From contig OZ287752.1 of NCBI GenBank assembly GCA_965649765.1, positions 11,966,001 to 12,030,000 on the forward strand: a DNA stretch of 64,000 nucleotides, written 5' to 3'. Below, in pieces: positions 393 to 55,564 of this stretch. This DNA is from Bispira polyomma (taxonomy: Eukaryota). Under the pieces are notes generated by a model, which saw only the letters and a program-made list of their open reading frames with translations, was not told the origin of the DNA and made no database searches. Position 1 is the first letter of the stretch, and the number at the start of each line of letters is the position of its first letter. The position numbers and the translations under genes were made by a program.

Positions 393-3300
393 ATATACTA
401 CCAAAAGTCCTTGGGTCTACAGTTTACTACAGTCTCTATTAAATTCTAGAATTTCTAGAATTGCACAGAATTATAACTTCAGTTCAATTCAGGCGTACAA
501 ATTTAATGACAAGAAAAAAAAAAAAAAATAAAATAAAACAATTTAAAAAAAAAAAAGAAAAAAAAAAAACAACAACAAAATTAAAATTTCATTTTATTCT
601 GTTTGTTTCAGTAGTAACATTGATTCATGTCATTAATTAATTATTGTTTTGGTACTCCCCAATTACCCAATTAAAGAAAAATATTATGTCGTTGCACCAA
701 ACGTCCCCCCACCCATCCCCCCACACGAATTGAATTTTTGGTAGGACAAAAACCATTCTAATATATTGGTTAAATTTGAGAGTGCCAAATGAAAAATCCT
801 GGCTACTCCCCCTGAAGTCTGAACAACACACAGATGCAATGAAGATTTGTCGGCAACTCTTATTTAAACATCTCAGGAAAGGACTGCCAATAGATGTTGC
901 CATCTCCATGGGGACTGGGCCTTCTGAACAGACAGTAGCTGAGACTGTTCATTAGTTCCCTCTTTACGAAGTTAAATTCTTGTTGTGGCTGTAGTTTTAA
1001 CTTAAGTATTTTAAGGTTTTTATTTGTTTTAGTCCAGACAATTTTTGTGCACGTATGGTTAGGGTTATTTTCAGAGTAATTGGTCATGTTAATTTCATAT
1101 CTATACATGTAATTTTCAAGATAAGGTCACATTGTAGTGGTAATTATAGTGGTAATGCAAATTTAACTATAAAGCATCTGTAAGCTGTATAATTGTGAAC
1201 CTTGTGTGAAAATGAATAGCAGTAGTATGTAGTAGTACCTAACATTATATGTTACCTGTTTTGTTTTATATATGTTTGACTAGGCGAGATTGAAATTTTG
1301 ATTCTGCCTAGGCAAGATTAAAATGCTCATGCTAATTTTAATCTTGCCTAGTTTACAGTGAAATTTTGATTTTACCTAGGCGGATATATAATTTATAATA
1401 ATAGTAATTATATTAATTATTTACATCAGTCTTCCAGCAGTATATTAGCTGATTACTTATAATAGTTTCAATCTTAAAGTGGTTGTGACATTAGAATTTT
1501 AAAATCAGATCCATCAGCACAACGAGTTCCCTTAGACTAATGGAGACATGCTAAAATCTAAGTAGACCTCCTGGGTGATAATGAACTTGTCTTCTCTTCT
1601 TCTTGTCAAGAGATGCTGTGGTTGAAGAATGCTGTAGAATTGTTCCTTCTGATTCATGATTAAACAATGACAGATAATCTTGTGACTAGATGTGCAAAGT
1701 CAAAGAATAGCTAGGCAGCTTTTTACTCAGCTTTTATATGATTCCTGACAAGGCAGATAGATACACGTACTTCACAAGGCTCAAAACAATGCGATAGATT
1801 TACCTATACAATCTGTGAGACTTTCCCCGGCCAAATGAATGTACTGAATCTTTAATATGTTTGGTGTAAATATCAATCTTGGAAGGGTTAAATTTAGTTT
1901 GTATTAAGTTTAACTGTTTACACTGGTTTGAGCATGTGTCTTTACACCACTGCCTTTGTAAACATAAAATATCCAACAGTACACTTCTATATTGTCTTTT
2001 TCAAGCCTTTATTGTGTTTCTTTACCAAAAATATTATGATCACTCATTGTTGTTTGTTAACTTCAATGACACTTTTAAACGAAAAAAAAACAACCCAACT
2101 GGATCTTTTTTCTAACATCAGAGGAAAAATGGAAGCATGAAATATTTAAATGCATGTAATTATAATTTCAAACATATTAATGTTTGGTTAAGTGTGAATA
2201 TTGTATATGTCTTCGTAATACATTGCAATAAGTTTTAATGAAAAGTCAGTCACAATATTGTATTGAGCTTTCTCCTATTTTGGATAAAGTAAAAAAAACA
2301 AACAAGAAAATTAGTTACGATTGCAGAAAATTTTACATGTATTACATGTTATATCAAAACTTGTATGTTTTTAGACTATATAAATACAGTTGCTATGAGG
2401 CACGTATCCTGAATGGGGCAAATCATGCTTGTAAGGAAATTCACAGGAAATATTTACTTACAGTAAACTTTCTAAAAATAATATAAACTTCGTTTGGCAT
2501 ATGTAAAATCATCAAAATCCACATGTTTACAATGAATTAGTGAGTGTATTAATTCTAAGTAACATTTATAACAATATAATATAGCTAGAACGATACTCCA
2601 TTAAATAAGGCAAATACAAATTATACTAATTTGAGTTACATGTTTCAGAAAAGATGGTTATTTATATGCCGAAGGATACAGTAATCTTACTCGCGCCAAA
2701 GGGTCTTTCGCAAATATGTTGAGCAAAGATATATTAAGTATAATATTTGAATGGCAGTAGGGACTTACTTCCCCCACTTCTTGGTGTATGGTATACTTTT
2801 AATACTTCATTTTATTAATACATTGTAACCATGAATAGACCCACTTGACATTAGAGTCGTGTTGTGGATATATTTTACCATTTTCAAACTTCCTTGTTGG
2901 AATATTACATAAATGAAAAAAATATACCTTATTTAAAATACTGCACAGTGAAAATTTTTAACATATTACACCCAAAAATTACCAATTTCAGAGAAAAGGA
3001 TGTTGAATATGGATCTTAACTGTGGATCTAACTATTTGGGAATGAATTGGCGTTATAATATGATCATATTAAGAAAATAAATAATTTTTTAAAATTAGTT
3101 TTTACTTGCCTCTTATAGTAGCTATATTTTATCATGAAGCATTATGACCATTTTAAAGTAAGTATGCTGAATATATATATATACCCTAAGGGCATACAAA
3201 ATTACATATTACATTACAAAAAAAAAACAAATAATTACTCCCATAGAGCAAAATCAATCTGGTGAGCAAGGTTACTTTAGGAGCCTGCTACTTCAGTCCA

Positions 3301-3572
3301 CAACACCTTAATGTTATTTCTACCTTAAAAATGTAACATTACAACACCAAATTTTTAACACCATCCTACGTATAAGCCAATCAGAGAGATGAAAATTCCC
3401 ACCGTTCTAAGTTCCAGTATGTTCAGACATCCATATTGCATTATCAGATTCAAGCACAAACAAGTATTTTTATTTTTTTGCAAACTTGATTTTACGACGG
3501 GTTTTTAATGTTACATTTTATTGATTCATCATACTGTGTATATTACAAGTGTACAAGTGGTCAACTGTGAAA

Positions 3573-4690
3573 ATGGCGAGAGTTCAGAAAACTCATACAC
3601 GCAAGACAAAGAAACCCACGACAAGGAAATCTACAAAAGCACAGGTATTAGGTTCTTTGTTCACTGAACGTCAAGTCACACAGCTAACTCCACATTACCC
3701 ATTCCGACCCCTGATACTAGTGTACTGGCTCCAAGTTCCAGTATTGCAGCCCCTCTTGTGTCAATGAGTCTTAGTGTTCAACACCCGAACGCACCTTGGG
3801 GAGAGCAGCCCAGCGAGATGCTTGCCATCTTAAGACGTCTGGAAATGTCTAATATTGCACTGTCCGAACACATCAACAGGGTAGAAGCTAGAAAAACCAC
3901 TCCGGCTACTTCGGGTGTTTCTTCAACTATGGCTCCACTACAGTTGCCTCTTTTTGGCCAGGGAAGGGCTCCACTCTCGCCTCCTGGGCAGTTGCCAAGT
4001 CATCACAGATTAGGGGCTACGTATATGCCACCTCAGCTACCTCTGACCAGGCAGGAGACGGCTCCACTTCCGATTACCGGACAGTTCCCAGGTCACTATG
4101 GTGTAGGGGCTATGAACATGCCCACGCAGTGGGACTATTCACAGGATGGGATTGTTTCCAACATTGATGTTCTGAGGGTCATGCCCACTGTTCAGTCGGC
4201 TGTATCGCGACAACCAGCCAAGTATGAATCACTAGCACAGAGACAGTTACTTCAAGGTAAGCTCACTTCACGCATTAAGTCAGGCAGATTCAACACACAG
4301 ACTTTACCACAATTGATGCTTGGTTCAGGTGACCCAACGAGGGATGAGTAGCAACTTGGCACGGAAACGTCCAACTTATGATGATCTTACGTTACGTCAA
4401 TTTGCAGCAGGGCAGATATCAAACACGCTGCAGGTCAATGACAACGCTATACTTAGGGACATGTTAAATCAACTGGTCTTTGCTTTAAGGGATGCTGCAT
4501 CCCTCCCATGGCCCGTGGTGAGAACGGCCTGGTCTCTTAATATGCAGGAAATTGAAGAAGTTAGGCTGTCATGGCAGGATAGCACCAATTGGGCAATCAA
4601 CAGATTGAACGCCTTGCAGTTACACAGTCTTCGAATGCAACTTCTAGTAGCAGTGATAACAAGGTAACATGTAAACTATATAACAATGGA
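3573..4690 (+). pseudogene. Gag-like ORF of YR element 1 (frameshifted, cut in the zinc-finger region)
   Basis: QGK..KSGRFN, YDDLTLRQFAAGQ, ASLPWPVVRTAW and WAINRLN are shared with elements 2 and 4; ends at KVTCKLYNNG. Confidence 0.8.
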
Positions 4691-4746
4691 AAGTATATAA
4701 GGGTATAAATACACTTGGGTAAGGGTGTGATAAGAGGGCATACAAC

Positions 4747-5604
4747 TCACACAAACATATTGATGCCTGCAGGGTGTAGGGTAGGGAAGGCCCAGATAAA
4801 ATATAATTCCTGGCGTCTGTGCCTGTCTGGGCAATCTGGGTTGGTGTCCTTCCCAAACCATTGAATAATGCTGAACTCCATGTGTTTCACTAAATGATTG
4901 TTTTGTGAAAAATGTCTGGAGACAGGTGTAGAGTTTTGTAACTTTGAGTTTTGAACACTTCTGTAGTGTTCATTCATTCTATTTTTGAATGGTCGTTTTG
5001 TTTCTCCAATGTATTGGAGACCACATTTAGCACAATTAATAATGTATATGACATTATTTAATTCACAAGTGAGTCTATTTCTGGGAGGAATGTTGATGCA
5101 TGATACTTCACCATATTTCTGGTTGAGGTCTTCCACATACTGAAGTGTAAGTTCTTTTTTACATTTGTTTACACTTTCAGTCCACTTTGTCTTGAAGACT
5201 TCAGATGTGGAGACTGGGGTTGAACATTTAAAGTTACAATGAGAAGTAAACTTCCCACTCTTCAAACTGTCTTTGATGAAGTGAATATTTGATGCAATAT
5301 TCAGCTTCTTTTTAAACAGATTTTTGGCCTTCAAATATAGTGGTTTGGTTTCAGGAGGATAGTTGTCACGACTAAGGCTTCTACCCTCAGTGGATGGTGA
5401 TGAGATTCTTTTTCTCTTTGCACTCTTAACCTTTAGGTCAACTTTGGCCAACTGTTTGGATGCCTCATCTAGTAGTGACAGGGTCTCATTGCTCATCTTG
5501 GTGGTGGGCATTGGGGTACCTGTGTCTGGAGTGTTGAATGCTGTATTCGAGTCCACTTGTAGGTGGTGAATTGCAGAGCTCAGGGCAGTATCACTCACAC
5601 TCAT
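4747..5604 (-). CDS. PLE N-terminal region fused in frame to a GIY-YIG endonuclease, no RT domain
   Basis: TCELNNVIYIINCAKCGLQYIGETKRPFKNRMNEH...PVSRHF...ELYFIW...LHPAGIN is typical of PLE GIY-YIG; uninterrupted 285-aa ORF. Confidence 0.85.
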   Translation of the reverse strand: MSVSDTALSSAIHHLQVDSNTAFNTPDTGTPMPTTKMSNETLSLLDEASKQLAKVDLKVKSAKRKRISSPSTEGRSLSRDNYPPETKPLYLKAKNLFKKKLNIASNIHFIKDSLKSGKFTSHCNFKCSTPVSTSEVFKTKWTESVNKCKKELTLQYVEDLNQKYGEVSCINIPPRNRLTCELNNVIYIINCAKCGLQYIGETKRPFKNRMNEHYRSVQNSKLQNSTPVSRHFSQNNHLVKHMEFSIIQWFGKDTNPDCPDRHRRQELYFIWAFPTLHPAGINMFV

Positions 5605-5673
5605 ATTTACCCAATAGAATAAAGTATAAAGTATATTTGTGTGTGAGAAAGGATTTGTGTTGCTCCAACAAAT

Positions 5674-5740
5674 GCCTAATATATAATGCTTATCACAAGT
5701 ATATATTTCGATTACTCTTTTGGATAATCTCCTCAGAGGC
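5674..5740 (-). ncRNA. Minimal type I hammerhead ribozyme
   Basis: Minus strand: GCCU-CUGAGGA-GAUUAU(ccaaaaga)GUAAUC-GAAA-UAUAUA(loop)UAUAUA-UU-AGGC; complete core, stems I-III, AUU cleavage triplet; located upstream of a PLE ORF as expected. Confidence 0.88.
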
Positions 5741-5899
5741 TGATTTTTTGATTTACAATTTTTACAATACCACTGGCAAGTATATATACTGTCCTATACA
5801 ATTCACACCTAATGGTGCTTTGCACATTGTTGGAACATTTGAGGTAATCATCAGTGATCATAACAAGGAATGCAGTTGACATTAATGGTAAAACAAGAC

Positions 5900-6453
5900 A
5901 GTAGGTTTTCTTGCTTTATTTTCTTCAGATTTTGACTTTTGTGGCCCAGATAGAGAGCCTGTCAATATAACCACAGTTGAAGAAATTTCAAAAGTGGCTC
6001 AGATCATTAGTAATACTGGTCTCCCCAAATATAGGAAAGGCAGAATACCATTAAGTTCTGGTTTGAACATAGGGGCTTGGAAAAAATTTTCAAAAAATTT
6101 CCCAGATAAACTTTTATTGCAATATTTGACTTATGGTTTTTCTTTCTCATTGAGTGAACCAGATCTAATTAAGAATGACAAAGTTAAGAATCACTTATCT
6201 GCACTGCAGTATCCACAGGCAGTTGAGAAATATTTGGATGAGGAAAAAACTTTAGAGGCCATGCTGGGCCCAGAATCAGCAATTAGTACACCTCACTATT
6301 ACTGTTCTCCATTGCTCACTAGGCCTAAGGATACCACCAAACGTAGGGTTATACTAAATTTATCTCACCCCTAGAGTTCATTTTAAAATTTCCCACGATT
6401 GATGACATCACACGTGCCTTGCAACAAACTGAGAACGCAGTCCTATTTAAAGT
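5900..6453 (+). pseudogene. Pol/RT N-terminal part of YR element 1
   Basis: LLQYLTYGF, NHLSALQYP, HYYCSPLLTRPKDTTKRRVILNLSHP; frame continues after the LINE at 13881 (KFDVVRAFRNL). Confidence 0.85.
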
Positions 6454-6751
6454 GTTTTTTTTTATTGTTCTTTTTGGTTTACATATATACAAGTCAAAAA
6501 TACGACACAAATTCAACCTTATTGAGAAAACACATTCAATATAATCACTTAATTACCAATTTTCTATAGTCATTTAGTAGTAATTACATTCGAAAAGAGC
6601 AAAACATCAAATTACCTAGGTACATCTATAAACACACGTACTTATATTTATATATACAGGCAAAAAAACAATACTCTTACACATGTACAACAGTTCTTCT
6701 AATTTTAGGTCTATAAAGGGTTTACAATACAATACATTATTATACCACTAA

Positions 6752-9700
6752 TTATAATTCTAAAAAGATAGCATGCCATGTCAACCATTTCCTTTTAAAT
6801 CCTTCGTATGTATTATTAACTTTTGACAACATCTCCTGTTCAAAATATTTTGTTTCAGCAATTTTTTGTAAATGATATATGTTAAAATCTCTGTTTTTTT
6901 GGGCATTTGTAAAAATATAATGTCTCGTAATTGTTAAGATAAAATTTAGTGGCCAAAAGTTTTGATCTTGTTCTAAAGTACCTAATATTTTGACTGATTT
7001 TTTCATATGGACTTTAATTCCGAGTTTGATTTAATCCAGGATATTACATTATTCCATAACATGTTTGATTTGATGCACTCCGAAAATAAGTGTACCATTG
7101 ATTCAGTATTCTGATTACACAGCCTACATCGATCACTATTAGACAGTTTTATTTTAAATAACAATTCTTTTGTCCCTAAAATTCTATGTAAAATTCGGTA
7201 TTGAAACCATATAAATCCATTATCATTTATAGTATAAAAACAAACTTTATATATTATTTTCCATATGTTTGGAATTTCTTCAATATTTAAAACTAAGCGC
7301 CATTTTGTTTCATTTTTTGGTAAATTGTCACATGATTCTTGCATTTTTAAATAAATATTTTTACTTCCGGTATGGGAGTTTACTAAAATTCTTATATGCA
7401 ATGGAATATATGGTCTTAAAAAAGGACAGACAATATTTTTCGCACTTTGCAGTAAAACTGGCTGAACAAAACGTTTTACCGTAAAGTAGTTAAGAATATT
7501 CACTGGAAAGTTATACCGAAACTTGATCTCTTCCAAGGTTAAGATGCAGCCTTCTAAGTTTACAATATCTCCAATAACATGAATACCATGCTTAAACCAA
7601 TCTGGAAAGAAAAGTTTATCCATACCAATATGGCTATTGAACCAAATACTGCTGCAGTATATGTCTTTAGTAGTGTGAACTTTTGAAGTTCTCTAAAATA
7701 AGTAAGAACTATTTTCCAAAAGGGACCACTCACCCCCTAGAGTAAATAATTTTGTTAGATCTCCAGCTACATGTTTAAGGAGGATAAACCAGTTTTTTCT
7801 TCTTACTGAAATCATACGCTTTATCCAACTTACTTTCAAAGATTTTTCAAAATTATATATATTAACCATGCTGAGCCCCCCCTGTAAATTATTTTTACAC
7901 AGTTGTTTTCTGTTTATCTTGTCTGGTTTCCCATCCCATATATATTTAAATAAGAGATTGTTGATGTCATTGAGAATCTTAACTGGTGTTGGGATTGATA
8001 AAGTGGATAAATTTTGATAATATTATTGTCTTAATAATTGTGATTTTTCCAGTCGGTGTCAGGTATCTGAATCTCCATGATTGGAGTGTGTGTTGGGCTC
8101 TTGTCAATGCTTTCTCATAGTTCAAACTTGGTATTTCAGACAAATCACATGAAAATTTTATTCCTAAAAGATTAAACTTAGAGTCTCCCCAGTGTAGTTT
8201 TGATGTAACTTTCAATTTTTCTTTTGAGCCAATTTTACTACCAATCCAGACAAGTTGAGTTTTTTCAGTATTCATTTTTAGGCCCGACAAATTACCAAAA
8301 ATTTCTAAAACATTCAAAGTTGCCTGCAAAGAATCTACATTGCCATCTAAAATCATTGTTATGTCATCTGCAAATTGTGTGAGCTTAAAAATCTCTTTTC
8401 TAATTTGGAGGCCCTTAATTTTTGAAGATTTCTGAATGAGAAAGCTTAATATTTCGGCTACCAAAAAAAAAAGATACGGAGCAATTGGGTCTCCTTGTCT
8501 ACAGCCCCTTTCTACCGGTATTGGATTAGATAAAACTCCACATTGTATTACGTATGCATTTATATCTCTGTTAACAAGTTTTATCCAGTTAATGAAATTT
8601 TCACAGAAACCAAAATAATTGAGTACTTTATAGAGGAAAGCCCATGAGACAGAATCAAATGCTTTCTCAAAATCAATTAGCATTAATAGTCCTGGAATTT
8701 TATTTTCTTCTGTATAGTTCATTAAATCATATATAAGTCTAGTATTTTCGCCTATGCATGTGCCACTTATGAAGCCAGATTGGTTTGGAGAGATAATATC
8801 CGCTAAAAGTGGTTTTAATCTTTCGGCTATAGAGGCAGAAGCTAGCTTATAGATAACACACAATAGCGATATAGGGCGCCAGTTTTTTAAAAGTTTTTGA
8901 TCCTTATCACCCTTTGGTATACAGGTTATGATATTCTGTCTCATTGAGATAGTTAAAAGGCCTTTGGAGTAGCACAGATTTATAGCATTAGTTATGTAAT
9001 ATTTTAATTTACACCAAAACACTTTTAAAAAGTCAGCTGAAATACCATCGATTCCAGGTGACTTATTATTTTTCATTTTTTTAAGTGCATTGCTTAGTTC
9101 CATGACCGACAAAGCATTTCCTAGTTCTAGCTTTGGAATTTGTTTCAGTCCGGCAAGATCAATTTCCTTACTCGAATTATATTCATCAAGCGCATTGTCC
9201 CTACTTTTGAAGAGATTACGATAAAAAATTTCAATTTCTTCAAATATTTGCTTTTGATCTGTAACAATAGAGCCATTCTTATTTTGCAGTTTTCTTATTG
9301 TTTTTTCAGTAAAATGTTTACTTTCCAATTTACAAAAGAAGGAGGTTGGCTTTTCCCCTTCATTAAGCCACTGTATTCTAGCTCGAGTCATGTATCCTTT
9401 TATTTTTTCTTTTCTAATATTTTCCAATTCTGTTCGCTTGTCATCCAATAAAGTTGTACTATTCTGGTTCATTGGATTACTTTCTAGAATGGCTATGTCA
9501 TTCATTAAATGTTTCTCAAGCAAATTTTGTTTCTTTTTAAAATTTGTTGCAAATTTTATTGTTTCGCCTCGAAATCTTAAGAACAACATTTCTAAGAAAC
9601 TATCGTCGTCAATAGAAAACTTAATGTTATTATTATTTATTTTTAAGTAGTCCAAATTATAAACAGGTAAAGCATATTTTAATTTCTCTTCCTCAATAAC

Positions 9701-10504
9701 TGTGTTGATCAGATTTAAATATTCTTTCTTATTCAAATAGCTATTGTTAAATTTCCATATACCACAGCCATTTTTGAAATTACAAGTATTTAGCTGCAAT
9801 TCTACAATAGAATGATCTGATTTATAGCTCGGTTTTATAACACATGATTCAACAATGTCAGTCATGGAATTCGATATTAAAAAGTAATCTAGTCTTGCTT
9901 GTTTTATCGGAGTTTTTTTTCTCCATGAAAATCGTTTAGCATCAGGATTTAAATATCGAAATATATCCACTAAATTTATTTCATTTAACATATCTATGAC
10001 TTTAGTTCTGGCTTGGGGGTTATTTATATTGACATAATTGTAACAATCTTTTATAGGGTCCATAACAAGGTTAAAGTCGACACAGATTACAACATAGTCA
10101 GCTTCATCATTTTTAGCCAATTGCAAGATTTTGCTAAAAAATTCTGGACTATCCTTATTTGGAGCATAAATATTGATAAGATTTAATTTCATTGTGCCAC
10201 ATGTAATAAGTAATTGCAAAATATTTCACTCTTTGTCCTTGTTCACTTCAGTTATCTTATACTCAAAATTGTTGTTTAGCAAGATTAAGACACCACGGGA
10301 GTTGGTTTTTGTTCCATTAAAATAGCAGTCATGTCAAACTTGTTTCAAAGAGGTCATATCGCTTTCCAGGAGGTGGGTATCCTGCAGACATACAATAGAG
10401 GCATTTGTTTCTTTCAGGTAATTTAGAACATCAATTCTCTTTCTAAAGTTGCGAAGCCCTTGACAATTTGCAGACAACACTTTAATGTTAGATAGATTCT
10501 TCAT
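6752..10504 (-). pseudogene. LINE ORF2: AP endonuclease, reverse transcriptase and C-terminal zinc finger, several frameshifts
   Basis: Starts MKNLSNIKVLSANCQGLR..CLQDTH at 10504; RLDYFL, SDH; KSPGIDG, NWRPISLL, LIDFEKAFDSV, GCRQGDPIAP, QFADD; CRLC..ESMVHLFSEC. Confidence 0.93.
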
Positions 10505-11985
10505 ATTGAATTTTAAATTTCACTTGCAGACAACCAAAATTTTTAATGTTTAGCAGATGTACAACAATGTTCAAACATACCAAAAATATAACGGTACTCC
10601 TTAAAACTTTATCGTGAAAATCGATAAGTGAATGTTTGAAAATCATGTTATGTGAATAACAACAACACTTACTATATTTTTCATGAATCTGTGTCAACAT
10701 ATCTACAAAAATATACAAAATGACATACACACTACAGAAAACACATATATGTACAATCCACCTTTTGGTGGCAAGTTTCATTTTTATGAAACAAGAAAAA
10801 CAAAAGGGGAACTATATACAGTTAGAGTCTACAATATGCACTCAAAGCTATTTAGTATTACAATTAAAGAGGACTGTCTAATGTTAATAATTATTACACA
10901 CAATCTACGTGCTGCAAGAAATAACAATAGCTGTTAGTTTATAGCTGTTTACAACCCTATACTAGTAATAACTATACAACATATAGTGTTGAAATATTTT
11001 TTACTCACAGTGTTTGTCACTGTAATATATATTTAATTTATAGTTGTTTATTCTGAGTGTAATACAGCTGCAGCAAAACTTGTTATTTAACAGATAATAT
11101 GATGCAATAAAACTATAGCCACTGTTTGCCACCAAATGTCATATTACTAAGTTAAAGTTGTCATTCAAATTCAATATGTATTGCAAAAAACATACAGAAG
11201 AAAAAATGAGACAATAAAGTGTTAATAACAGCTAAGAATTTTAGGACTGTACTAAATAACTAATCCCTGAATTCATATTCATAGTAAGTTTCAATTTTTC
11301 AAAATGTAATTTTACCACATCTTTTAACAAAGGTACATCATCAAAGATAATGACATGAAATAATCATGTGTAAAAGTCAATAAATGTGATTTATTAATAC
11401 GATAATATTTGCAATATGTGCTAAAAAAAGTAACACAGATTGTGACTTTAGCACAGTGCTACATCCTCAGGACCGTCATACAGCCACTGTTAATATTAGT
11501 GGTAATTATGTTTAACAATTTACAATATGTGTTTGTGGATAAGGTCAGTCTGTTTCGTTTAATAATAATCGTTATATCACAGAAATTGTGATGCAGTATA
11601 AGATAATCATATGGCTATAAATTGTAATTATATGTTTTAACATATTATATTATCATGCTGTCTTCCGACTGTCATTAAGATTGATAATACATTCATCATT
11701 GAAATATATTCGTAAGACAAACATAATAATTATCACTTTTCAAATATATAATTGGACTACCCCTTAAGGCAGTCGTACATTTGTTGGTAAATTTCTTATG
11801 TGAGGAACAATTGTGGTAAACAAATCAGCTAACCATATGTTAAGCAATTTAACTCTAATTAGACAAAAATAAACAGCTACAAATAGACAGTAGTACTTAA
11901 GTAATTGAATTACAGCCAATAAGGTAAAGTATTACTGACATATAATATGCCATCTGGACAGATTAAGTTAGTATCATAGTATAGG

Positions 11986-13205
11986 TCAGTTTAGTGATGC
12001 TCTTACTTCCATTAATATTTCACCAAGTCTGTTTTTACCTTTCCACTTAGCATTGTCCCAGATATCCTTGTCCTGTAGAGATAGTCCCACCCCACAATAC
12101 GAGTCTCTTGGATTTGCTTCAATTAAGGTTGATTGGCCTGTGTTCTTCAGAAAAGCAGCGAGTTCAGGATTCTGTGTGAATTTTGCATCAATTCCTAACT
12201 TCATATATCCGTCACACACTTTATTCCATTCAGCACTGTTGAAATTTTCTACCTTGTGACCTAGTTTCTTGGCAGTCACCGGGTCATCCGTGCCTAAGAT
12301 TGAAGTAGCTGTCACCTCATCATTGAAGTATTTTGACTTTCTGAACATAAAATGTTGTTCAGCAGAATCAAATTGCAGGCCATCCTTCATGAAGGATGAT
12401 GGATAGTGGTTGGAAAGAATTGAGTGCTTGGTGAAAAAGGCTACAAAATTTCCACTCTTAATTGTTGTCAAGGTATTTGGTTTCAATTCATCATGTAGTT
12501 TATCCAACTCTTTACTGGTGTACTGCTTACCGTTTAAAACTAGCTTATCGAAATTCAACCTTGCTTTGTACTTGCCATTTGAAGTATAAGCTGCTTGTAG
12601 GACAGGAATAAAGTTTTGGCGTTGCTTTCTCACCTCAGATGGAAAATCCTCTGTGATAAAAATTTTGGAATGTTTAAACTTTTCCTTTTCCATCAGCACT
12701 TTTTGACGATCTTTGAAGTGATGAAATTTGACAATGATAGGGCTATCTTTCTGACCAGTAATCCAGAGTCTGTGAGCGCGTTCAATGTCTCTAGGTTGGA
12801 GTACAATACTATGTTTGGAACACAAATTAATGATTAAGTCCTCACAATTCTCAGGTGCTCCTGTTGGGGTTGACTTCTTGATACCAAAAATCTTCAAGTT
12901 ATTCCTTCTTGACCTTCCTTCCATTGAGAGAAGTCTTTCTTCTAACTCATTGATTTTATCTTCATAAGTTTGTAATTTGGCACTCATCATCTTGTTCTTG
13001 GACTCCATATGATTCAGTTTTTCTGTAAGTAGCGTAATTTGATGAACTTGCTCAGAAGTAAATTTTACAGTCTGCTTGACTTGGTCCAAGGGGAAACTAA
13101 CTCATAGTCTCTTTTCAACTGTTTGCTTATTACTCCATTGGTAGTACTAGTTTTGCTGGTGCTTCCACGATTTCCAGCACCCTTATTACTGTCTTTATTA
13201 GGCAT
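11986..13205 (-). CDS. LINE ORF1p: coiled coil, L1-type RRM and CTD, plus C-terminal NADAR (YbiA-like) domain; frameshift or deletion near 13090
   Basis: Likely ATG at 13205 (MPNKDSNKG..KRDYELVSP); RSRRNNLKIFGI, IERAHRL, PIIVKF, ITEDFP; NADAR motifs LSNHYPS, SAEQHFM..K, AKKLG, AKFTQNPEL..L..TG, EANPRDSYCGVG, GKNRLGEILMEVR. Confidence 0.88.
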
Positions 13206-13880
13206 TTTCAATGGTGTTCTGCACTCTATTTGGGATTATTACTGTACCAAGTCTTTATTCAATAAGCATATATATATTATTCTGTTGTGTTATCCTTTTC
13301 TTATGTAACTATAAGACTTGTTTGTTACATTCAGTTGGTATTTCTTATCCTTTTAATCCTTTAAACTGTAACCCCTGTTTGTTATGACACAAGGCATACC
13401 AAACACAATATCACATCTGTTGAAAAATGTACTTGATAAATGTGTTGAAAAGTGTACCTGATGAACCATAACATTCAAATTTACAAAGATCCATTTATTG
13501 TGCTGAAGAAATACCAGGTAGCACTCCACAATATTGATAGACAGGTTCACACCCTCCACAGGTTCAATCAACAGAACACTAGTACATTTCTTTAAATCAA
13601 ATTATCAAGCCAATTTGTGTCATATATGGAATCTGCTGTACACCTCTACTGTATATTCAATATGGCTTGCATATAAATCATCCCAAATCATCAAACTTTT
13701 TGCCTCTAATTTAAGCTGTAATATAGCTTATTTTATTTACTTTTAGTACCAGGGTAATCTATGCACATTTAAAAATCACATTATCTAAAAATAATAGTCA
13801 ATCCTCTTCAATTTCCCACATAAAATCTTATAGACTCCCACAGCTAAAAAATTCACATGTCTCTCTCAGACCTCTCCCAG

Positions 13881-15525
13881 TCCTGGTTAAATTTGACGTG
13901 GTGCGCGCATTTAGAAACCTGCATGTCAACCCTGCGTACGCAATGAAATTAGTAATTTTTTGGCAAGATAAATACTATGTAGACCCTGCTATTGCATTTG
14001 GCTGGGTACATGGAAGCACAGCGTTTCAGCGTTGTATGGACGCCATAACCTCTTACATGTGTGGCCAGGGTTTTAATCATGAAGCAAGTTTCAATCAATA
14101 CTAAGCAGATTATTATATGTCTACAAATGTGTGCATCCAGCACGTATGTTCGTTAATAGACTTCTAGCTTCCTTTTTGGTGCACCACACTAGTAAACGCT
14201 TTAAGGTTACAAATGATATGAAGAGCGATTTGAAATGGTTTATAAAATTTCCGAAGAAATTCAATGGAATTATTTACATTGACCATGACGTTATACATTT
14301 CTCTGATGAGTTACATTTGGATTCCTGTTTAACAGGTTTTGGGGGCATATGGAAAAACGAGGTATATGCTACCCCTTTTCATGACTTATTCGATTGAAAA
14401 CATACAATCGTTCATTTGGAAATGCTTAACATAATTATCGCTTTGAAAATTTGGGCTGAGCAATGGAGATACAAAAGAGTAAGCATCAACTGTGATAACA
14501 TGGCTGTGGTTCTGGTGGTTGAATCACAGAAAACTAAAGATAATTTTCTAGCTTTATGTTTGAGGAATTGTTACGGTCACGGGAGCAAGTGCGGTAGCAA
14601 TTACCGGTTGCTTTCAATTTGTAACAGGAAAACACAAAAAGTTTCACTTAATAAATTTATTTAAGAATTAAAATAACAATTACAGTCAACTGAGATACTC
14701 TTAATAGTTTATACAATAATATAATAAGAAAACCAATCTGACCTGACCAAGCTCCTGTCCCTATAACTAACAGTTAAACAAGTTTGTCCACTGTATCCAG
14801 CAATCTGTATTGAGATGAGTTTGGTGCCCACTAACACACAATGCCTGTATCTTGTTATCTGTTCAGTGTCCACAAACACAAAATGTATATATCCAGAGAT
14901 TCTGCACAACTAAGCTATCCATTCCAGGATGCAAACAATATCAAATATGTAGCAGTGCCACTCTCGGGTAAATCTTTAACTTTATATCCAGTTTACTCCA
15001 ATGAGTTTACCACAAAACGTATATAATAACCAGTATATATCCACTTGACACAGAAATAAAGTGTTTCACAATATAGCAGTCCGCATAGCATACCAACTCA
15101 ACAAATTCTAGTCTGTGGCCAGGCTTTCAACCCTTATATATACTAGACCTATAGAAGGCTCTAGAGTATGTAAACAACAGCTACCAGAAGACTTTGGAAT
15201 TAAATGCAAACAGGTCAACACAACTCCAATAAAAACACTACACAGAACCAGCTTCCAGAAGCTTAGGGGTTTTCCCCAATCTATAAATAGATCACTTTAG
15301 CACAGTGCTATTAAATGTAACAGGAATATTTAGCTGATTACAGCAACATATGATGTAATTTTGAATATTAAGCATATCCCAGGTAAAAATAATACCATTG
15401 CTGACACACTCTCTAGGATTTATTCAGAGAAAGGTGCTATTAGGGAGTTGTTACAACCAATTATGAAGAATATTGACTGGAAACCAGTTCCGTTGGAATT
15501 TTTAAAACTAGATTTTTATATATAA
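13881..15525 (+). pseudogene. RT and RNase H remainder of YR element 1, split by a solo LTR
   Basis: AFGWVHGSTAFQR, HLDSCLTGFGG, HLEMLNI, NCDNMAVV, HIPGKNNTIADTLSR. Confidence 0.85.
14569..15322. mobile_element. Solo LTR (754 bp), BEL/Pao- or Gypsy-like
   Basis: TGTTAC...GTAACA termini; perfect 5-bp TSD GGAAT (14564-14568, 15323-15327); removal restores the RNase H frame CLRN/I. Confidence 0.9.
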
Positions 15526-15531
15526 TTGCAG

Positions 15532-16430
15532 GTTCTACTGGGATCTCTCAGCAGTTCATGGATTCAGCCTGGACACGAATTCACTTTTCGTTAAGGCCTA
15601 AGATAAACTTAGCTCATAATAGACAGTTTAAAAAAAGTTTTTTTAGTTTTCTAAAATTCGCTGGCATTGACAAGATTAGTGTTCATGTAGTCATTGCATT
15701 TCTTGAATATTTGGTACAGAACCAAATTTCTCCGGGAGCCATAAAAAATTATATGGCGGCCCTCAGATTTGTAGCCAATAAATATCAATGTGATCTGTCA
15801 CCATTTATCCACAATTCGGTATCACTTTCTATAAGAAGTTTGTCAACTTCAGGCCAAAACCTAAGGGAATCTTTACAATTCACCAATTGGCAAAAATATC
15901 ACAGGCATGTGAGATCCTGGATGACCCCATTTTATATAGAAAAATTTTTCTTCTAGGATTTTTGAGACTTTCAAATATTTCACCCCATGCTAGAGTGGCG
16001 TTTGATCCCTCTGGGCATTTCTTGAGGCAGGATGTGGTTTTTGGCCATCCTGGGTCCCTCATTATCCTTAAGTGGGCCAATAACCTACAAAATACAACAT
16101 ATACACATCTTATTCAAATACCAGTCTTAAATAACTGTGTCCAGTTACTGCTATTCCTACACTGCTTACGTCTAGGATTGTTTTCCCCACAGCACCACTT
16201 TTTGCAAGTAGCAGTCCCCCTTATCACATTGTGGTGAACTCCCACGTCAGGACAGCCTTGGAAAGAATCTTAAACCACATTGGCTTACAATACAGTTCAC
16301 ATGGCTTCCACACCTTTAGAAGGTCAGGAGCCACTTTTGCCTTCAATAACAATGTTTCCTTACAGAATATCATGACCCATGGTCTCTGGAGATCATCAGC
16401 CGTTGGATATATCTCCAGATATATCTCCAG
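15532..16430 (+). pseudogene. Tyrosine recombinase of YR element 1 (frameshifted)
   Basis: FLEYLVQN..NYMAALRF; GFLRLSN (catalytic R); HGFHTFRRSGA (HxxR); HGLWRSSAVGY. Confidence 0.9.
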
Positions 16431-16963
16431 TGGTACCACTTGCTTTTGCCTCCTCCATTCCCTCCTCCCTTGAGTTTTGCTTGGGTCCTAAAAATTTGGT
16501 AAAAAGTCTACAAATTTTAAGGTTTTACTATTTTTAATATAAATATAGAAATGTATATATGAAACTAATATGTAAAATAAAAGCTCAAATGGAATGTTTT
16601 ACTACCTTCTTCATTAAATACTTCATAAACTTTATCATTCTTGGCCTGAACTTTATTTGACCTTATACATCTGACCTTTCAACTTGGGGACTGTAGTGAG
16701 CAAGGTTACTTTAGGAACCTGCTACTTTAGTCCACAACACCTTTATCTTATTTCTACCTTAAAAATTTAACATCACAACACCTTATTTTAATACCATCTG
16801 TCTATCCTAGGTATAAGCCAATCAGAGGGCTGAAAATTCCCACCTTTCTAAGTTTCAGTATGTTCAGACATCCATATTGCATTATCAGACTCAAGCAGCA
16901 AGTTGCAATGTTAAGTCATAATTGATAAAAAATTCTTTTGTTATAATCTGTTTTGGAAACTTG

Positions 16964-17095
16964 GAGCCCAGACTCTGTGTGGAGGATTCTGTTTACTAAA
17001 CCCCTTCTGAGTTCACGCTAGGGACCAGAGTTGAATAGGAACCCTGGTAAGCAGAATCCTCTGCTAGGCGATTTGGTGCCCTAGGTGTCGGGCTC
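16964..17095 (+). ncRNA. Conserved structured RNA element between A2 and B2 of YR element 1
   Basis: Closing stem GAGCCC/GGGCTC; 18-bp stem 16979-16996/17047-17064; homologues at 59660-59795 and 38275-38361 (-), with compensatory changes in the former. Confidence 0.8.
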
Positions 17096-18409
17096 ACCAA
17101 ACTTCAAGACAGAAAGCGCAAACACAAAACAAAATTATTGTGTTATTTCAAAAGTTTAACCGAGATGAGTTTTCTGAATTTCTGTGTGCTACAATAGGAT
17201 TTCTTCAAGATCTTCAGGTTTATGGGCAGTTTAAGCCGACTCTGTATGGTAGTACAGGTCAGAATGTTGTCAGTTTATGGCAAAATTATGGTGTGTGTTT
17301 GTAGCCAGGGTTAAAACCCTAATGGTATATGACAAATGGATACTGTTTATAATTTGTTTGTGGGTGCAGTTGGCCCTGATGAATCATATTTTATAGTAAC
17401 CAGTTTACGTAAGGTACTATTGTTTATGGCTAGTCGTAATTTTGTGACTGTAAAGAAAGTATCTAGTCAGTATTATATTGAACTTATTTTGATATGATGA
17501 TTGTTGGATAATATGATTGGTTTAATATTCTGCATGGATGGGATATTATATGAAGTTACTCCTGTTTATAGGCTTGTCCTATTTATGTAACTGAAGGTTA
17601 AAACATTAAATTTTTAATAGGTTTTTAATATTAGTGTTGTATTAAGATTTATTGTTAGGCTTATGCAATGCTTGGCTATTGTATACGACCTGGTTGGGTC
17701 CTAAAAATTTGATAAGAAATCTACAAATTTTAAGGCTTTGCTGTTTTTATCCTAAATGTAGAAATGTATTTATGAAACTAACATGTAAAATAATAGGTCA
17801 AATGGAATCTTTTACTACCTTCTTCATTAAATACTTCATAAACTTTATCATACTTGGTCTGAACTTTATTTGACCTTATACATCTGACCTTTCAACTTGG
17901 GGACTGCAGCATAACTCACTATGCTTGGGTATGTTATTGTTATATTAGACAGTATTATAATGACAAAAAAAGGTTATTAGAGACAATGTTACTTTCCTCA
18001 CAAAGATCTTCTATTTGATTGAATATAATATATCTAAGTCACTTTTATTTTGAATTGTATTACAGTTAAAACCATTTACTCATGAATTATAACTTAAATA
18101 GAGGTTAGAAGGAGTTTAAGTTTCAGTCATTCCATTACTATAGTCTTGGTCTATTAATACTTGCTCTGTCTTCAAACACAAATCTTTAGCCAAAAGGGAC
18201 TATAAACATATACTCATGCGTGTTACTTAATTAAATAAAATTATTTGACTTGGAGGTTTAGTAGCATGAAGGTTTATCATTAGATCAGTTCATTTCAAAA
18301 TTGGTTAGCCCTGTGACAAAGCGCTACAACTATTATTATTTCTACTAATAAACTATACTCAGAGTAAAGAAAATATCAAGTATTAATTTATTTGCAGTCC
18401 TAACATTTA

Positions 18410-37863: not shown

Positions 37864-40800
37864 GTTGCTAAAATCGGAGAGTAGGTGAACTTCAGGTTGA
37901 CCTTGAAGTTGAGAGTTCTGGTTATGGTAACCCATAAGGGTCATGTGATAGAGTAGAGTTGGATGTGGTAAACCAGATGCTGTTTGGGAATATATTAATT
38001 TCTAACTACTGCTTCTATTTACAACTGTACAAGTAAAATGTTAAGATAAAATTTTAAAATGCCAATATGGCTACATAATAAAAACAAAATCCATAACATA
38101 TAACAAGAGTATGTTAGATGAAATTGCTAGGGAGCAATAGTCCTGAAAGAAACGAACAACATAAAAGGTTGTCGTATAAGAAGGTCATAATAAGTGACGT
38201 ATAAGTACCATTATAAAAGGTAACAAAAAAACCGCAGCATAGGTAACTTTACAAGATAACAAGTTAAACTGACTCACAGAGCTCTTATTTGATCCTGGAA
38301 CCCTAGCGTGAACTCAGGGAAGGATTAAGAGACCGGAATCTCCACACCGTTACTGAGCTCCGTTGACCCAATGCATGTGATGTAGCTTGAAGGTAGGACC
38401 AAATAGCAAACAGACCCGTGTTTCTGTATGTGCTGAAGTTTTACATTAGAATAAGGAGCAAGGAAAGCTCGAGAATGTATGGTTTTCAAAGTGGATCTGA
38501 GTTAGGAATCTAATAAACAAATGCATTTGTCAAAAGGGGTGCATTGGAGATACAGCATATTTCCAAAATAAAACTGTAGGTGCTCTAACAGGGCATAACC
38601 AAGGGGCAAACAACACATCAGCCCTTGTGAGGTGTCTGGTGGGGTTAAAGGGGGTTGCTGCAGTGGTAGTGAGGCTAGAAATCTTCAAAAAGCCAAAAAA
38701 TGCAAAAAGCAAAGCAGTCCTGTATAACTGCAAGGTTTTACAACACTGTGAAATTTGAAGTAGTTGGTGTAAGACCCCTTTGACCTGGGGAGTGTATCGA
38801 GAGGTAAGTTCAAGTTACCTTGTGTATAATACCAGTATGGGGTCATATAACCATGTGTTTTGGATATTTAACACTTTGGTGTGGTGCCTCAGAGCAGAGA
38901 GATAATTGTTGATTACTTCATGGAAAATACCTGCCTGTGTTAAAAAGTCCAAAAATGCAATTCAATATTAAAACTGAATGTCTGTTGCAAGTTATAATAT
39001 ACTTTGAAGCTTATGAACAGCCTAAACTGGCTGTCGTACTGTTTCTGTGTCGTAGGTATATGGTTTCATCCTGGTCGTCTTAACGTACCTTGAATTAGAG
39101 AGCCAGCTGAGTCTGAGGCGCCTGAAATTATATATAATTATACAATGTAAAAAGGGAAGGGTATGTCATGCATTACAAATTTGTCAGTAATAAGGTCACG
39201 AATGTAACTGCAGTAATGGTCTAGTTCGTACCAACGTTATAGAGCATCAGAAATGACATTTTCCTTAACAGGGATGTGACTAATACTAAGGTCAATATTT
39301 TTTGTAGCACATATTTGCCAAATATTTTTCAAACATAAGCCTAAAAAATCGTCTTTAGTTTTGGATGACTGCATTTTTAAGGAAATCAAAATGCTGACCA
39401 TTTTAAAATGAACAATTGACAGTGTGTCAGTCACAGAGAGAGGAAGAGGGGTTTAAAACACATTATTATTGCAGATACCACCTATTCCAGATAAACAAGC
39501 ATCAACTTGTGGTAAGGTGCCATAAGGTTTATTTATGTAGTTGTACATCATTGTGTCATTAATAATAATATATCAGACTATTTTAGCACTTTTTTTTGTT
39601 GTAACAATTCTAAGGCGCAAAAAAAAACCACAGCCAGAGTCAAAAAACATAGGTGATAGACAAAAGAATGTCGTCATCCTTAAACTGATTTATAAACCGT
39701 AAAAAAGATAATATATCCTGAGGAAAGTCCCGGATCAAACTGACTGTACTACTTCTAGTAGATTGTCTCCGTAGTGCTAACATTCTGTTCATAAAGATGT
39801 GAGCAGGCTTAATACAACAATGTAAATATAAAAGTTTTTCAAGTAATGATTGATACTTTTGTTTACGTTCATTTTTCAAGGTATTTGAACTCGACACAAG
39901 TATTATTTCTGGACACAAGTTTATCCTTGACAATACTGAGTGTTTTGCTGGTAATATCAATTGTGTTGCTCATGTAAGTGATGCATTTACTTGGAGGAAC
40001 TAGTTTTTGAGAGTAAATGGGTAGATCTAAATCTGCGAGTGTTTCTTGGACGGTGTTGTACGCTAAGCCTGCATTATCTTCAGATTCTATGAGTATGAAG
40101 TCATCGATGTAGTTAAACACTGTGAAACTTTTCTGTTTCAATATATAAGTTAAGCAATCGGATGTCATCATAAAAGCCATTGTACCATGGGTTAAGCCAA
40201 AAGTCAAACTTAAATCAATGTAGTAATTATTTTTCCAAAGATATCCGAGTTTGAATCAATTGTAAGGGTCAATTCTTAAATTTTGAATAGCGCGAGCCAC
40301 GTCCACCTTAGCTAAGTTTGTGTTAGGTCCAATAGTCAAGATATGTGAAGTTATTTGGTCAATAGTCGGTACTATTACTGTACAATCATTCACAGACTGT
40401 CCTGAAGGGTGAGATAAGTTCAATAGCAATCTACGTTGGTTAACATCTTTGGGCACTGTTAATAGTGGTGAGCAATGTATATCTGGTTGGAGGTCACCAT
40501 TCACAGGGCCTATTATTGTGACACGCCTGACTTTAGAGATAAAGTATTTATGTATCGCTTCTGGGAAAGCCTTGGCTGAATAGTAATTTTTGTAATGTGT
40601 AATCTGTCTCTCTCATAGAGGGTAATGGAAAAACCATACTCAATATACTGCAAAATAATTTTATTAGGGTAGTGCCTTAAGTGGTCTTTCCATTTTCCTA
40701 CATTCAGATTGCTCTTAAGTAGGATACAGGCTAGCTTATAGTTTGCAACCTTTGTAGATTTGCTAATGTTGGTCACCTCTACAAGTTTGTCGTATGAGTT

Positions 40801-43107
40801 GATGTCAACTTCTGGTTTGTCAGCATCTGTGAATGTAAAATTGTTCTGACTGTGTGTGATATAACCATAAGCTCTATGATCAGATCTGACAATGTCCTCT
40901 TGTATCTAATTGACCTTGGGAACTACTGGAGAACGTTGTGTTAAAACCTTCTCATTCATAAAGTCCTTGTTGTACCCTGAAAGTGAATGTGTAGAAGTGT
41001 TGTGTGAGTTGTTGGCATGTGTACTGTGTGATACAATCTCAACTTTGGATTCTGAAGTTTGAGTATCTGTGTATGTGTGTTCGTCTTGTTTGCCAATACT
41101 GGCTATGATGTCTGTGTAATACAGTGTGCTGCCTATAGTAGTGCGTGTGTGTGATGCTTTGCATTGTGTTCTTGCGTTTTTTCTCTTGTTGAAAATGCCA
41201 TTAGTAATAACTGGTATATATCCAGTTGCTGAATAAGCTATTAGCCAAATATAGTGCCAGTGGCCTCTGACACACTAAATAACAGGGATCTGACACATTA
41301 CAATATTTGCCACCCAAGTATATATCACCCAACTGGGTGTCAAACTTTAAATCACTACATCCATTGTTCACTTCATCATTGCTATGATGTCTGGATTAAC
41401 AACTGATTTCAAACTGTGTGATTTGGTCATTCGTGAAACTTTTAACACTTAAACTCAGGATGAGGGATGGACTTGTTGTGCAAACGAAAAACAGTTGGCA
41501 CAGATGTGTTTAATTAATTTTCGCCCCTTCGTGATATTTTGAGTGCAGGGCATCTCTTGTTTGTTGGAAGTCGACCCAGTGGAAGAAGAACTTGAAGTAG
41601 TGTTGCTGGAGACAAGTGCCTGAGAATATGATAACCTATTCAAAGTCCACTTAATTTCATTTAAACAGGTTAACCAACTTGCCTTTACATCGTGCATATT
41701 GCACGCATAGGCCCCCTGGGCGACTTGGCAAGATATGTTTGAGGCGTCTTTTAGAGTGTCGACCAGCTCAGTAAACATAGCTTGCGATACATATATATGT
41801 ATATACGATAAGCATATTCTTTACCTCCAGGATGCTCTGTATCTGGCCGGCTGCAAATTGGGGAATGGTTAAATTGTCATCTGAAACACCCTTTTTGTTG
41901 ACCCCTGAAAGACAGGCCTCATTAGGCCAGTGTTTCATAGGATCCGCTACACAAAGATCAGACACATTATAACGTTCTGACTTTCGTTGTGTAAAGCTTA
42001 CCTTGTAGGCTTTTGGCTGCTGCCCAGGCTTCATAACATGGCTATTGCAGTGAAACTTCATTCTGAATCAGAGGTGATTGTTTCAAAACATACGGTGGGT
42101 ATAATAGCATCATTTAACAACTGTTGAGTGGCATCCTGTCAATAGCTGTCTGGCTGATATTGGCGACTCCCTGTGCCTGGGGTTGTAACATGCCTGCTAC
42201 ATGTGGCTGGTGAGTAATCTGAGGTGGATACCCGCTGTGAGGAAGACCTCTATGTATGTCATTGGCACCCGGAAGGTTGTTTGATGTGGATTGTCATGGG
42301 TGCTTATACGTCGGATCTTGGAGAACCAGAGGTTGTTGTAGTGGGGCAAGGAGCTAGAGTGGACCGAGGTGACGGGGCCACTGGTGTAGTACTGACAGCC
42401 GGTAACTGTAGGACAGGGGCTTGAAAACATCGTGAATTGAGATCAGAGACGTCCTCCTGTAGTTTGGACACAGCATTTAATAATGTCTGCATCATGGTCT
42501 GCTGTCTAGCGTGGATGTTTGTATACAAATGTTGTGAACTTACATTGTCAGTTGAGTTGTCAGGAACACTGCTCGCAGTATTGCTGTCGAAGTTGTTGGT
42601 TCTGCTCAAGTCCTGGTCAGTCAGAAGCTCTACTTCTGTCATCAAAGCCTCAGTGATCCTTATGCAACCAATTACCTACTGGGCGAGTGTGAAATATGTC
42701 ACATCTTAAGCACATAGCTGTATTAATGCCAAGTTTTTTCTTTATTTGCCTTCCTATTGTCTTAATTTATCAAAGTGTAGATACACAAAGATACACAATA
42801 GTATGAATGTGATAGTTGTACACTAAAATCACTTGTAAATAAGGTAAAACGGGGATAAGAACATATAAAATATACTTGATTTTCCAAAATTCACATAAAA
42901 AATATATTGATTTTGTTTCTTTGACTGTCAATTAATTAATGCCAATATGGTAAAAAAGGCGGGAAAGGATCTCTCTTAAGGCTAGTGACTGGCTGTGTTA
43001 CTTAAGCTTTCTAAGAAGTGATTGGAGTACTAGGATTAACAATTTCGTAGCGGTAAGTGATACTGTAAGGTGTACAATTTGTCATGCTATTCTAGCAGTG
43101 ACTACAA
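37864..43107 (-). mobile_element. YR retrotransposon 2, heavily decayed
   Basis: Gag ~41455-42700 (LTIPQFAAGQI), RT/RH ~39190-40900 (HCSPLLTVPKD, FGLTHG, NYIDDF, KENVISDAL), YR 38530-39121 (LLFAFFGFLKISSL); empty site AAGCTTCATGCACTTCAAG at 19362. Confidence 0.88.
38275..38361 (-). ncRNA. Partial (5' two-thirds) copy of the conserved YR-element RNA structure
   Basis: GAGCTCAG..GTGTGGAG..CCTTCCCTGAGTTCACGCTAGGG..; 3' arm missing. Confidence 0.65.
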
Positions 43108-53878: not shown

Positions 53879-54506
53879 GTCTGGAGACCTTTTCTGTGCA
53901 GTATCTTTTACTTTTCTTGAAACAAAAGTTTGATAGAAGTCTGCACCACATGATGTCAACGATGTATTTTATAATAATAATAAATAATATATCAGACTTT
54001 TTTAGCCTTATTTGATGATGTTATGACCTACAGATGACAAATCTAAGGTTATCACTGCGTCATTGGAATATTATGCTACCCTAGTGTTACTTGAATGGCA
54101 AACAAATATTTATATATTGACCATCATGTTTCAAACTAAATATAACATAATCAGCCACTTACATATTGATGTTACAAAATGCCCCACTTATGTATATTTT
54201 GTATAGCAAGGATAACACACATAATATAACAAGTTTCTTAGTGGCAAGTATGAACAGCACGACCACTTCAGGGGCCTGCTGCCTCAGTTATAAAGTACGA
54301 CTTTAAATCTTTTTAATAAAGTCCTTTCTTGTTTCACCTTCTGTCCATCACACAATACCTCTAAACCATGCTTGGGTGCCATATTGAAAACTCAAACCAA
54401 GGAGGTAACAAGTGGAAAAAGTTATAGACATTATTAATGAGTTATATATATACATGCTTTTATTTTAGTGTAACTTTGTTTTTACAATCATTATACACAC
54501 TATGGG

Positions 54507-55564
54507 ATGTACAAAGAAGACACCCGGCAGTCTAAAAGAAAGACAGCTACAAAGAAAGTGAACAGTCCGGTATCATTATCCGACTCTGTCGCACGTAATT
54601 TGCAAGTTCCTTCATCTGAAACTACCCCGAGTAATTCTATGTCAGCCGGATCAGAGGGGCTATCTGAAGTCATGAGTGTTTTGCGCAGGCTCAAAGCTGC
54701 CAACACTTCTATTAATAGATGTTTAGACCAAGTTGAAGCCAAGGCCACATCTTCAACGAGTGCTCTGCATAACGGCCCAACGTTTGCTACCACTTCGGCT
54801 GAGGCCTCGCCGTTACTACAGCCAGCAGTTCCCCCACCACAGGCTGCGGTGGTGCACACGTCCTATCAAGAATTTCAACTAGATTTCATAGTATCGAAAC
54901 TAGACGTGCTGAAGTTGATGGCTGATGTGAATACAGCTGTTAACCAGAGATTGGCCGCCTATGCGCCAGACTTACCCATGACCTTACACAAGGTAAGCAC
55001 CTATCCAGGCATAGATCCGGGTGATTTAATACAACAGACATCTGCATCATTGAGCCACAGCGTCGTTGGCCCAATGAAGGATGTGTAGGAGGAACTGGGA
55101 AAAAACATCCTGCTTACAATGAGCTTTCTCTTTCCCTGTGGGCGTCGGGTCAGTTATTCAACATTTCACAGATTTCTGATATCACGCTCATGAAGCAGAT
55201 GATCATGCAAGTCACCTACTCATTGAGAGATGCGAAATTTCTTCCATGGCCCACAGTTAGGTCTGCACGGGCCCACAATATGCAGGAGATTGAGGAGAAC
55301 CGGATGGAGTTGGCAGACTCAACTCAGTGGGCTATTAACAGGCTTAATATGTCACAGATGGCGCTAGTTTAATTCACACATCGCACAGGGTACTCAGAAA
55401 CCAAAAGTCACCTGCAAATATTTTAATGTTGGATCGTGCAGTCACGACAGCGATCACAGCCAGTACCGTCATATTTGTTCTCACTGCTTTAAGCACCTCA
55501 ACAAGGAGAGTAATCATCCAGAGTTTAAGTGCGTGAAGGCTAACAGTGATAAGGCCACAAGCTA
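54507..55564 (+). pseudogene. Gag-like ORF of YR element 4 with C-terminal zinc fingers
   Basis: LPWPTVRSA, WAINRLN, CKYFNVGSCSHDSDH..HICSHC..HPEFKC; stops and frameshifts. Confidence 0.82.

Follow-up and report, generated by a model that had tools for sequence, protein, structure and literature searches.

Ngaro-like retrotransposons of Bispira polyomma likely express their tyrosine recombinase as a spliced fusion to the N-terminal half of Gag

A 64,000-nucleotide stretch of the Bispira polyomma genome (GenBank assembly GCA_965649765.1, contig OZ287752.1, positions 11,966,001 to 12,030,000, forward strand; hereafter the window) harbours four decayed copies of Ngaro-like retrotransposons, elements which encode gag, a pol with a reverse transcriptase (RT) as well as RNase H, and a tyrosine recombinase (YR) on one strand. 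Comparison of these copies with their genomic relatives indicates that the elements likely make the recombinase from a spliced RNA which fuses the N-terminal half of Gag to the YR. A phase 1 splice donor in mid-gag would be joined to a phase 1 acceptor located just past the pol stop codon, whereby splicing would skip the 3′ half of gag together with all of pol and give rise to a Gag(N)-YR fusion of approximately 500-650 amino acids, with the Gag part supplying the start codon for the YR. A preliminary description of the window had proposed that the YR is produced from a spliced RNA that removes the gag C-terminus and pol, a reading which is supported by the codons at the donor, the sequence context of the acceptor and an intron-less genomic copy.

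Within the window, the donor CAAG|GTAAGC (the vertical line marks the exon boundary) is found on the plus strand at 4253..4262 in element 1 (GT at 4257), where it falls in phase 1 into the gag codons Q-G-K, and at 54989..54998 in element 4 (GT at 54993); element 2 carries the donor GT on the minus strand at 42001, and element 3 has ACAG|GTATTT at 47142 on the plus strand. The acceptor motif ATATATAATT(G/T)YAG|G immediately precedes positions 15532, 58235 and, on the minus strand, 39121. It extends over 15518..15532 in element 1 (plus strand, AG 15530-15531, exon start 15532), with the pol stop codon TAA at 15523-15525, 9 nt before the YR exon, and over 58221..58235 in element 4 (plus strand, AG 58233-58234), while the acceptor region of element 3 is deleted. 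On both strands of the window, CAAGGTAAG and the acceptor motif occur just three times each, every time at the homologous spot of elements 1, 2 and 4. A recheck of the window sequence showed that all donor and acceptor coordinates of the preliminary description are correct. The predicted intron spans 2,880 nt in element 2 and 3,242 nt in element 4 (54993-58234), and reaches 11.3 kb in element 1 because of nested insertions. Owing to a frame break a short way upstream of the donor, the long gag ORF (open reading frame) of element 4, 54474-55088, reads through it in phase 0. As all four copies are decayed and none could encode the whole fusion, the window alone is no proof of the join, and a genome-wide comparison was therefore made.

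Two YR queries gave 7,006 and 5,274 first-look genomic candidates, of which 150 each were scored, and 60 plus 20 copies were fetched, selected because their YR frames are long or because they are close to the window elements. These 80 copies fall into 23 subfamilies at 80% YR DNA identity, each represented by one natural copy; the 23 representatives are 56-80% alike in YR DNA, with a median of 61%. The donor Gly codon is GGT in all 23 representatives and is the sole one of 126 conserved four-fold degenerate columns with a codon fixation of at least 0.9 (next 0.82, median 0.44), with the remaining 30 Gly columns between 0.27 and 0.75. The adjacent Gln and Lys codons are CAA and AAG in 22 representatives each, and Q, G and K are the three most codon-fixed of 465 conserved degenerate columns across gag, pol and YR, two-fold columns being less discriminating (one YR Phe column reaches 21/22). 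An aligned donor codon is available in 70 of the 80 copies, 62 of which read CAAG|GTAAG and five a single-base variant that keeps GT; one reads AT and two are apparently misaligned. Genome-wide, a gag motif ending in CARGGTAA has 1,146 matches (none in the reversed control), versus 12 matches (control 1) once the Gly codon in it is replaced by a synonymous one. The preliminary description had named free variation among synonymous codons at the donor as an observation that would speak against splicing; such variation is not what is found. In the clade of element 3, the YR of which is approximately 35% identical to that of L065, ACAG|GTATTT is present in the best 30 of 150 scored hits, element 3 included; Gly is followed by I, M or T there, yet GT-A is kept in 20/20 longer copies.

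The acceptor was assigned by a script that picks the nearest in-frame YAG, and it is the position and context of the motif, not its presence, that count as evidence. It is located at the expected codon in 76 of the 80 copies, shifted by one codon in one, displaced by a 10-codon duplication in another and lost by deletion in two. The representatives share the pattern TT-N-YAG|G in phase 1, with T at -6 in 22 and at -5 in 23, a free position -4 (A6 G7 T10), exclusively C or T at -3 and AG|G throughout (23/23); the acceptor's A forms the third base of a codon that encodes S, V, T or A and yet invariably ends in A. Downstream of AG|G, the frame extends over 324-325 amino acids in 19 representatives, is longer in two and cut by stops in two, and upstream it is open for just 2-29 codons. 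With GT...AG ends, donor and acceptor consensus and matching phase, the predicted intron, which measures 2.4-3.6 kb in 65 of 67 measured copies, has the features of a U2-type intron; a possible branch-point motif, a TTTAAY-like stretch at -30 to -25, falls on the conserved F-N codons of pol. In the element 3 clade the YR lies within the fetched stretch in 16 of 20 copies, and YAG|G occupies the same codon in 14 of these 16, the other two being mis-anchored. Both donor and acceptor are also retained in the more distant family of L200 and L201, with gag only 28% identical. In some element 2-like subfamilies (L134, L140, L148 and their relatives), the YR exon starts with A, which makes the junction codon Asp instead of Gly. 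Two exceptionally long frames were set aside, as the 855-amino-acid YR frame of L103 is due to a deletion that removes the acceptor and the 513-amino-acid frame of L198 to gag running on.

The check for a genomic copy from which the intron has been precisely removed yielded one such copy (L151/L155), with the junction at G000:C1:95309325, which was found by a looser two-sided pattern search. It matches the full-length copy L148 at 97% identity on both sides, the left match running to the very base that precedes GT and the right one resuming at the base that follows AG, and it lacks exactly the 3,337 nt between donor and acceptor, the ends of which share just AG. From the gag ATG to the end of the YR it is in frame over 523 codons, with one stop at codon 97. 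The copy ends at termini common to 11/13 (5′) and 10/13 (3′) of the compared relatives and shows neither poly(A) nor an evident target duplication. It most likely represents a reverse-transcribed spliced RNA, and the native termini and lack of poly(A) point to the element's own replication rather than LINE (long interspersed nuclear element)-type retroposition; the spliced RNA would have been reverse-transcribed in trans and inserted by the machinery of the element. Among the best 40 scored of 278 candidates it is the sole hit that spans the join, and two looser pattern searches, with five and three matches, each recovered this same single copy, the other matches comprising four without element hits and two judged by eye to be chance. 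Stricter patterns gave five chance-like matches without the junction, and no intron-less copy was seen by eye in 100 listed of 123 matches nor in four that were fetched; they missed the copy because the exon of its subfamily starts with A. As the pattern searches use fixed spacing, decayed or differently spaced intron-less copies would escape them.

A different origin of the recombinase would be translation of the YR alone, with ribosomes on the full-length RNA re-initiating past the pol stop through an AUGA overlap or using an internal or non-AUG start, and with splicing being minor or regulatory, for example in limiting full-length RNA. In L037 and the L043 group the TGA stop indeed shares bases with an ATG, the first Met past the junction is at position 10, nine codons into the exon, in 8/23 representatives, an in-frame Met precedes the junction in 3/23, and the genome contains very few spliced copies. 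Depending on the group, however, the codon overlapping the stop is ATA, TTA, GTG, GTA, CTA, CTG or ATG, and in 15/23 representatives the first Met past the junction is encountered only at position 27-90, inside the SAM-like domain; no start Met is shared by the 23 representatives, in line with the suggestion of the preliminary description that a conserved one is lacking. Moreover, every clade has its donor and acceptor in the same phase, a requirement that splicing with a purely regulatory role would not impose. Expression of the YR on its own appears improbable.

Even less probable is that the YR is translated as an extension of Pol, through a ribosomal frameshift or read-through where pol ends, with the motifs serving this process. 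The covered part of PMC3783388 describes the Ngaro YR as in frame with, or frameshifted from, RT-RH (RT/RNase H), and in most of the subfamilies compared here the YR frame does start shortly upstream of the pol stop, in the -1 frame. Yet the overlap of pol and YR amounts to just 4 nt in 6/23 representatives and is absent in 1/23, and a slippery heptamer is present in 3/23. The distance from the pol stop to the exon, 9 nt in most representatives, rises to 10 nt for L096 and L106, to 12 or 13 nt for the element 3 clade and to 21 nt for L200 and L201, leading to a frame offset of -1 at 9, 12 and 21 nt and of 0 at 10 and 13 nt (L096, L106 and six copies of the element 3 clade); six copies of the element 3 clade have irregular distances, probably due to decay or mis-anchoring. 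That the offset between pol and YR varies while the phase of the exon is kept argues against a conserved frameshift, which would in addition leave the fixed donor 3 kb upstream and the intron-less copy unexplained. The pol of element 4 reads into the YR by a copy-specific change, as its close relatives L082, L083 and L085 keep the usual stop.

A last reading would put the motifs down to constraint on the amino acids, or to a signal of some other kind in RNA or DNA, and would regard the intron-less copy as misassembled or as the product of a fortuitous deletion in DNA. It can draw on the conservation of QGK as protein in 34/36 motif-carrying relatives from other datasets (a protein-level count only), the frequency of internal deletions and the single intron-less copy, but is hardly credible, as the synonymous positions are frozen at the donor only, both breakpoints, with 2 nt shared, lie exactly at the GT and AG named beforehand, and the free -4 and the pyrimidine at -3 of the acceptor match the spliceosomal 3′ consensus, in which -4 is free and -3 a pyrimidine.

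Several observations nevertheless weigh against splicing as the source of the recombinase. The spliced RNA itself was not seen, the three read runs examined looking like genomic DNA, with a depth of approximately 10 on the flanks in runs X1 and X3 versus several hundred on the element, and the predicted joint is not among 15 joints listed of 44 in these runs. Likewise, none of their listed contigs (355 more pieces lie beyond these) bridges the intron-less join, such that this copy rests on the assembly; it is one copy versus approximately 1,146 donor-bearing sites, in a family in which internally deleted copies are common. Since the subfamilies are related and the copies were selected, the 23 representatives do not equal 23 independent trials, and internal initiation is possible in those with the early Met past the junction or a Met upstream of it. 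No fused protein was found among 121 Gag-N relatives or in a search for longer proteins, which is weak evidence as the database relatives look like ORF calls on DNA. The YR frames of 14 distant metagenome relatives (24-31% YR identity) mostly overlap the pol end by approximately 20-35 codons, and no such acceptor was recognized in them by eye (donors were not tested), which limits the claim to the lineage described here. A search of viral contigs and a first metagenome scan found no relative.

If the recombinase is indeed expressed by splicing, the unspliced RNA would yield Gag as well as Gag-Pol, the latter when the single in-frame UAG is read through, and the spliced RNA would yield Gag(N)-YR. 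The gag frame ends in TAG followed by G, in frame with pol, in 68/75 copies (L031-L110; in element 4 at window position ~55565), and a CRA-CYA-like motif is found 4-6 codons past this TAG in most representatives; the two together likely constitute a stop codon read-through signal. The TAG|G at the end of gag was also considered as an acceptor for pol and dismissed, as it is out of frame from the phase 1 donor and has no pyrimidine tract before it. The Gag-N part has a basic N-terminus and a variable linker. A low-confidence structural model of it (mean pLDDT 61), for which no match in the PDB was found, predicts a long helix at residues 49-84 and helices ending at the donor, the last of which spans residues 152-175. 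Tentatively, the Gag part could do more than supply a start codon, with the basic N-terminus acting in nuclear entry and the long helix in joining Gag particles. The rarity of spliced copies invites the speculation that the spliced RNA is poorly packaged, perhaps due to a signal in the intron. Rather doubtful is a broader scheme according to which the spliced Gag(N)-YR would be general across this Ngaro lineage, and perhaps across split-repeat YR retrotransposons at large, with the Gag half docking the YR into particle and nucleus and the intron holding a packaging signal that would limit spliced copies to roughly one per thousand.

Gammaretroviruses express pol by read-through of a UAG between gag and pol and env from a spliced RNA, while foamy viruses use a spliced pol RNA. 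The elements described here resemble this plan in a single in-frame UAG between gag and pol and a candidate spliced RNA for the third gene, but differ from the gammaretroviral plan in that the donor is positioned inside gag, such that the product of the third gene would be fused to part of Gag, and in that this product is a tyrosine recombinase and not an envelope; furthermore, they are without long terminal repeats (LTRs), and neither a DDE integrase nor env was seen. In plant Ty1/Copia elements, a conserved splice makes a subgenomic RNA beside the full-length RNA and yields Gag alone, with early termination (Oberlin et al. 2017, PMC5580714). A conserved splice leading to a subgenomic RNA is also predicted for the elements described here, but in these its product would be the integration enzyme joined to half of Gag, with pol left out.

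The character string ‘splic’ occurs not once in three of the main texts of PMC9210276, PMC4157794, PMC3783388 and PMC8547959 and only in unrelated passages in the fourth. A spliced Gag-YR fusion was not found in the literature searched, including the covered parts of PMC7192593, PMC6681497, PMC9341512, PMC3266345, PMC2632668, PMC9940879 and PMC5633606; as the founding Ngaro literature and Repbase lie outside this coverage, prior mention is possible. The spliced Gag(N)-YR, as deduced from genomic sequence, is a well-supported candidate for an apparently new way in which a known group of retrotransposons uses a spliced subgenomic RNA. How a YR without a start codon and placed after pol is expressed is not addressed in the covered parts of the Ngaro literature, and splicing offers a precise answer. 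If true, annotations of YR ORFs in this lineage miss the N-terminal half, a point that matters for recombinase biochemistry, and a retroelement that does not bear LTRs combines read-through with splicing much as retroviruses do.

The Ngaro elements, assigned to the order DIRS, are defined by split direct repeats and the order gag-RT/RNase H-YR in the covered parts of PMC4157794 and PMC9210276. By ORF order and repeats, the window elements and their relatives fit this definition. The order gag, RT/RNase H, YR is found on one strand, with the RT/RNase H motifs recognized in the translation by visual inspection, and in the open frames of L065 and L066 the last RNase H motif is followed by approximately 35 residues up to the end of pol, which, judged by length, leaves no room for a methyltransferase. 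Gene order, split direct repeats and the lack of a methyltransferase after RNase H agree with Ngaro as described in the covered parts of PMC9210276, PMC4157794, PMC3783388 and PMC8547959; there, however, the YR is a separate, overlapping or frameshifted ORF, whereas here it has no shared start and a conserved phase 1 intron boundary. PAT-like and DIRS-like elements were rejected, as there is no room for a methyltransferase and no inverted terminal repeats lie within an element, the sole inverted repeat pair in the window spanning two different elements. Element 1, at 3262..17909 on the plus strand, has the split direct repeats A1 3262-3456, B1 16478-16696, A2 16696-16897 and B2 17691-17909, and element 4, at 54251..60325 on the plus strand, A1 54251-54422, B1 59197-59386, A2 59384-59596 and B2 60136-60325. 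For the decayed elements 2 (38518..42116, minus strand) and 3 (46570..49024, plus strand, of a distant clade), split direct repeats were not found. Within one family of the genomic relatives, L148, L159, L163, L164 and L155 have A...B termini only, and their sisters L135, L157, L158, L161, L162 and L165 possess a second A-B pair. In the pol of L065, L066 and L093, a stretch of approximately 340 residues with a weakly conserved middle part precedes the RT region.

The YR exon of element 1 (15532..16404, plus strand) is interrupted by internal frame breaks and encodes a SAM-like N-terminal domain with a Pfam match below the curated cut-off. In element 4 (exon 58235..59188, plus strand), the Phage_int_SAM domain starts approximately 14 residues past the junction and scores above its cut-off, the Phage_integrase match stays below the cut-off, and the catalytic part is located in a second frame.

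Three nested insertions reside inside the predicted intron of element 1. A GIY-YIG endonuclease ORF (window 4747-5793, minus strand), which from its domain plan we take to be Penelope-like, and a nested LINE endonuclease/RT (7003-10225, minus strand) are both antisense to element 1. The insertion block further contains a 371-amino-acid ORF with a NADAR domain (11986-13101, minus strand; Pfam E 2e-39) and a coiled-coil-like N-terminus, which may be cargo of a mobile element. Between elements 3 and 4, a decayed LINE-like endonuclease/RT remnant was recognized by eye at 51440-53480 on the plus strand. A multi-kilobase repeat is present in three copies (~18200-21200, 43100-45300 and 61000-63600) and a partial fourth (37350-37850), which are 60-90% alike, have no ORF of 150 amino acids and each adjoin a YR element.

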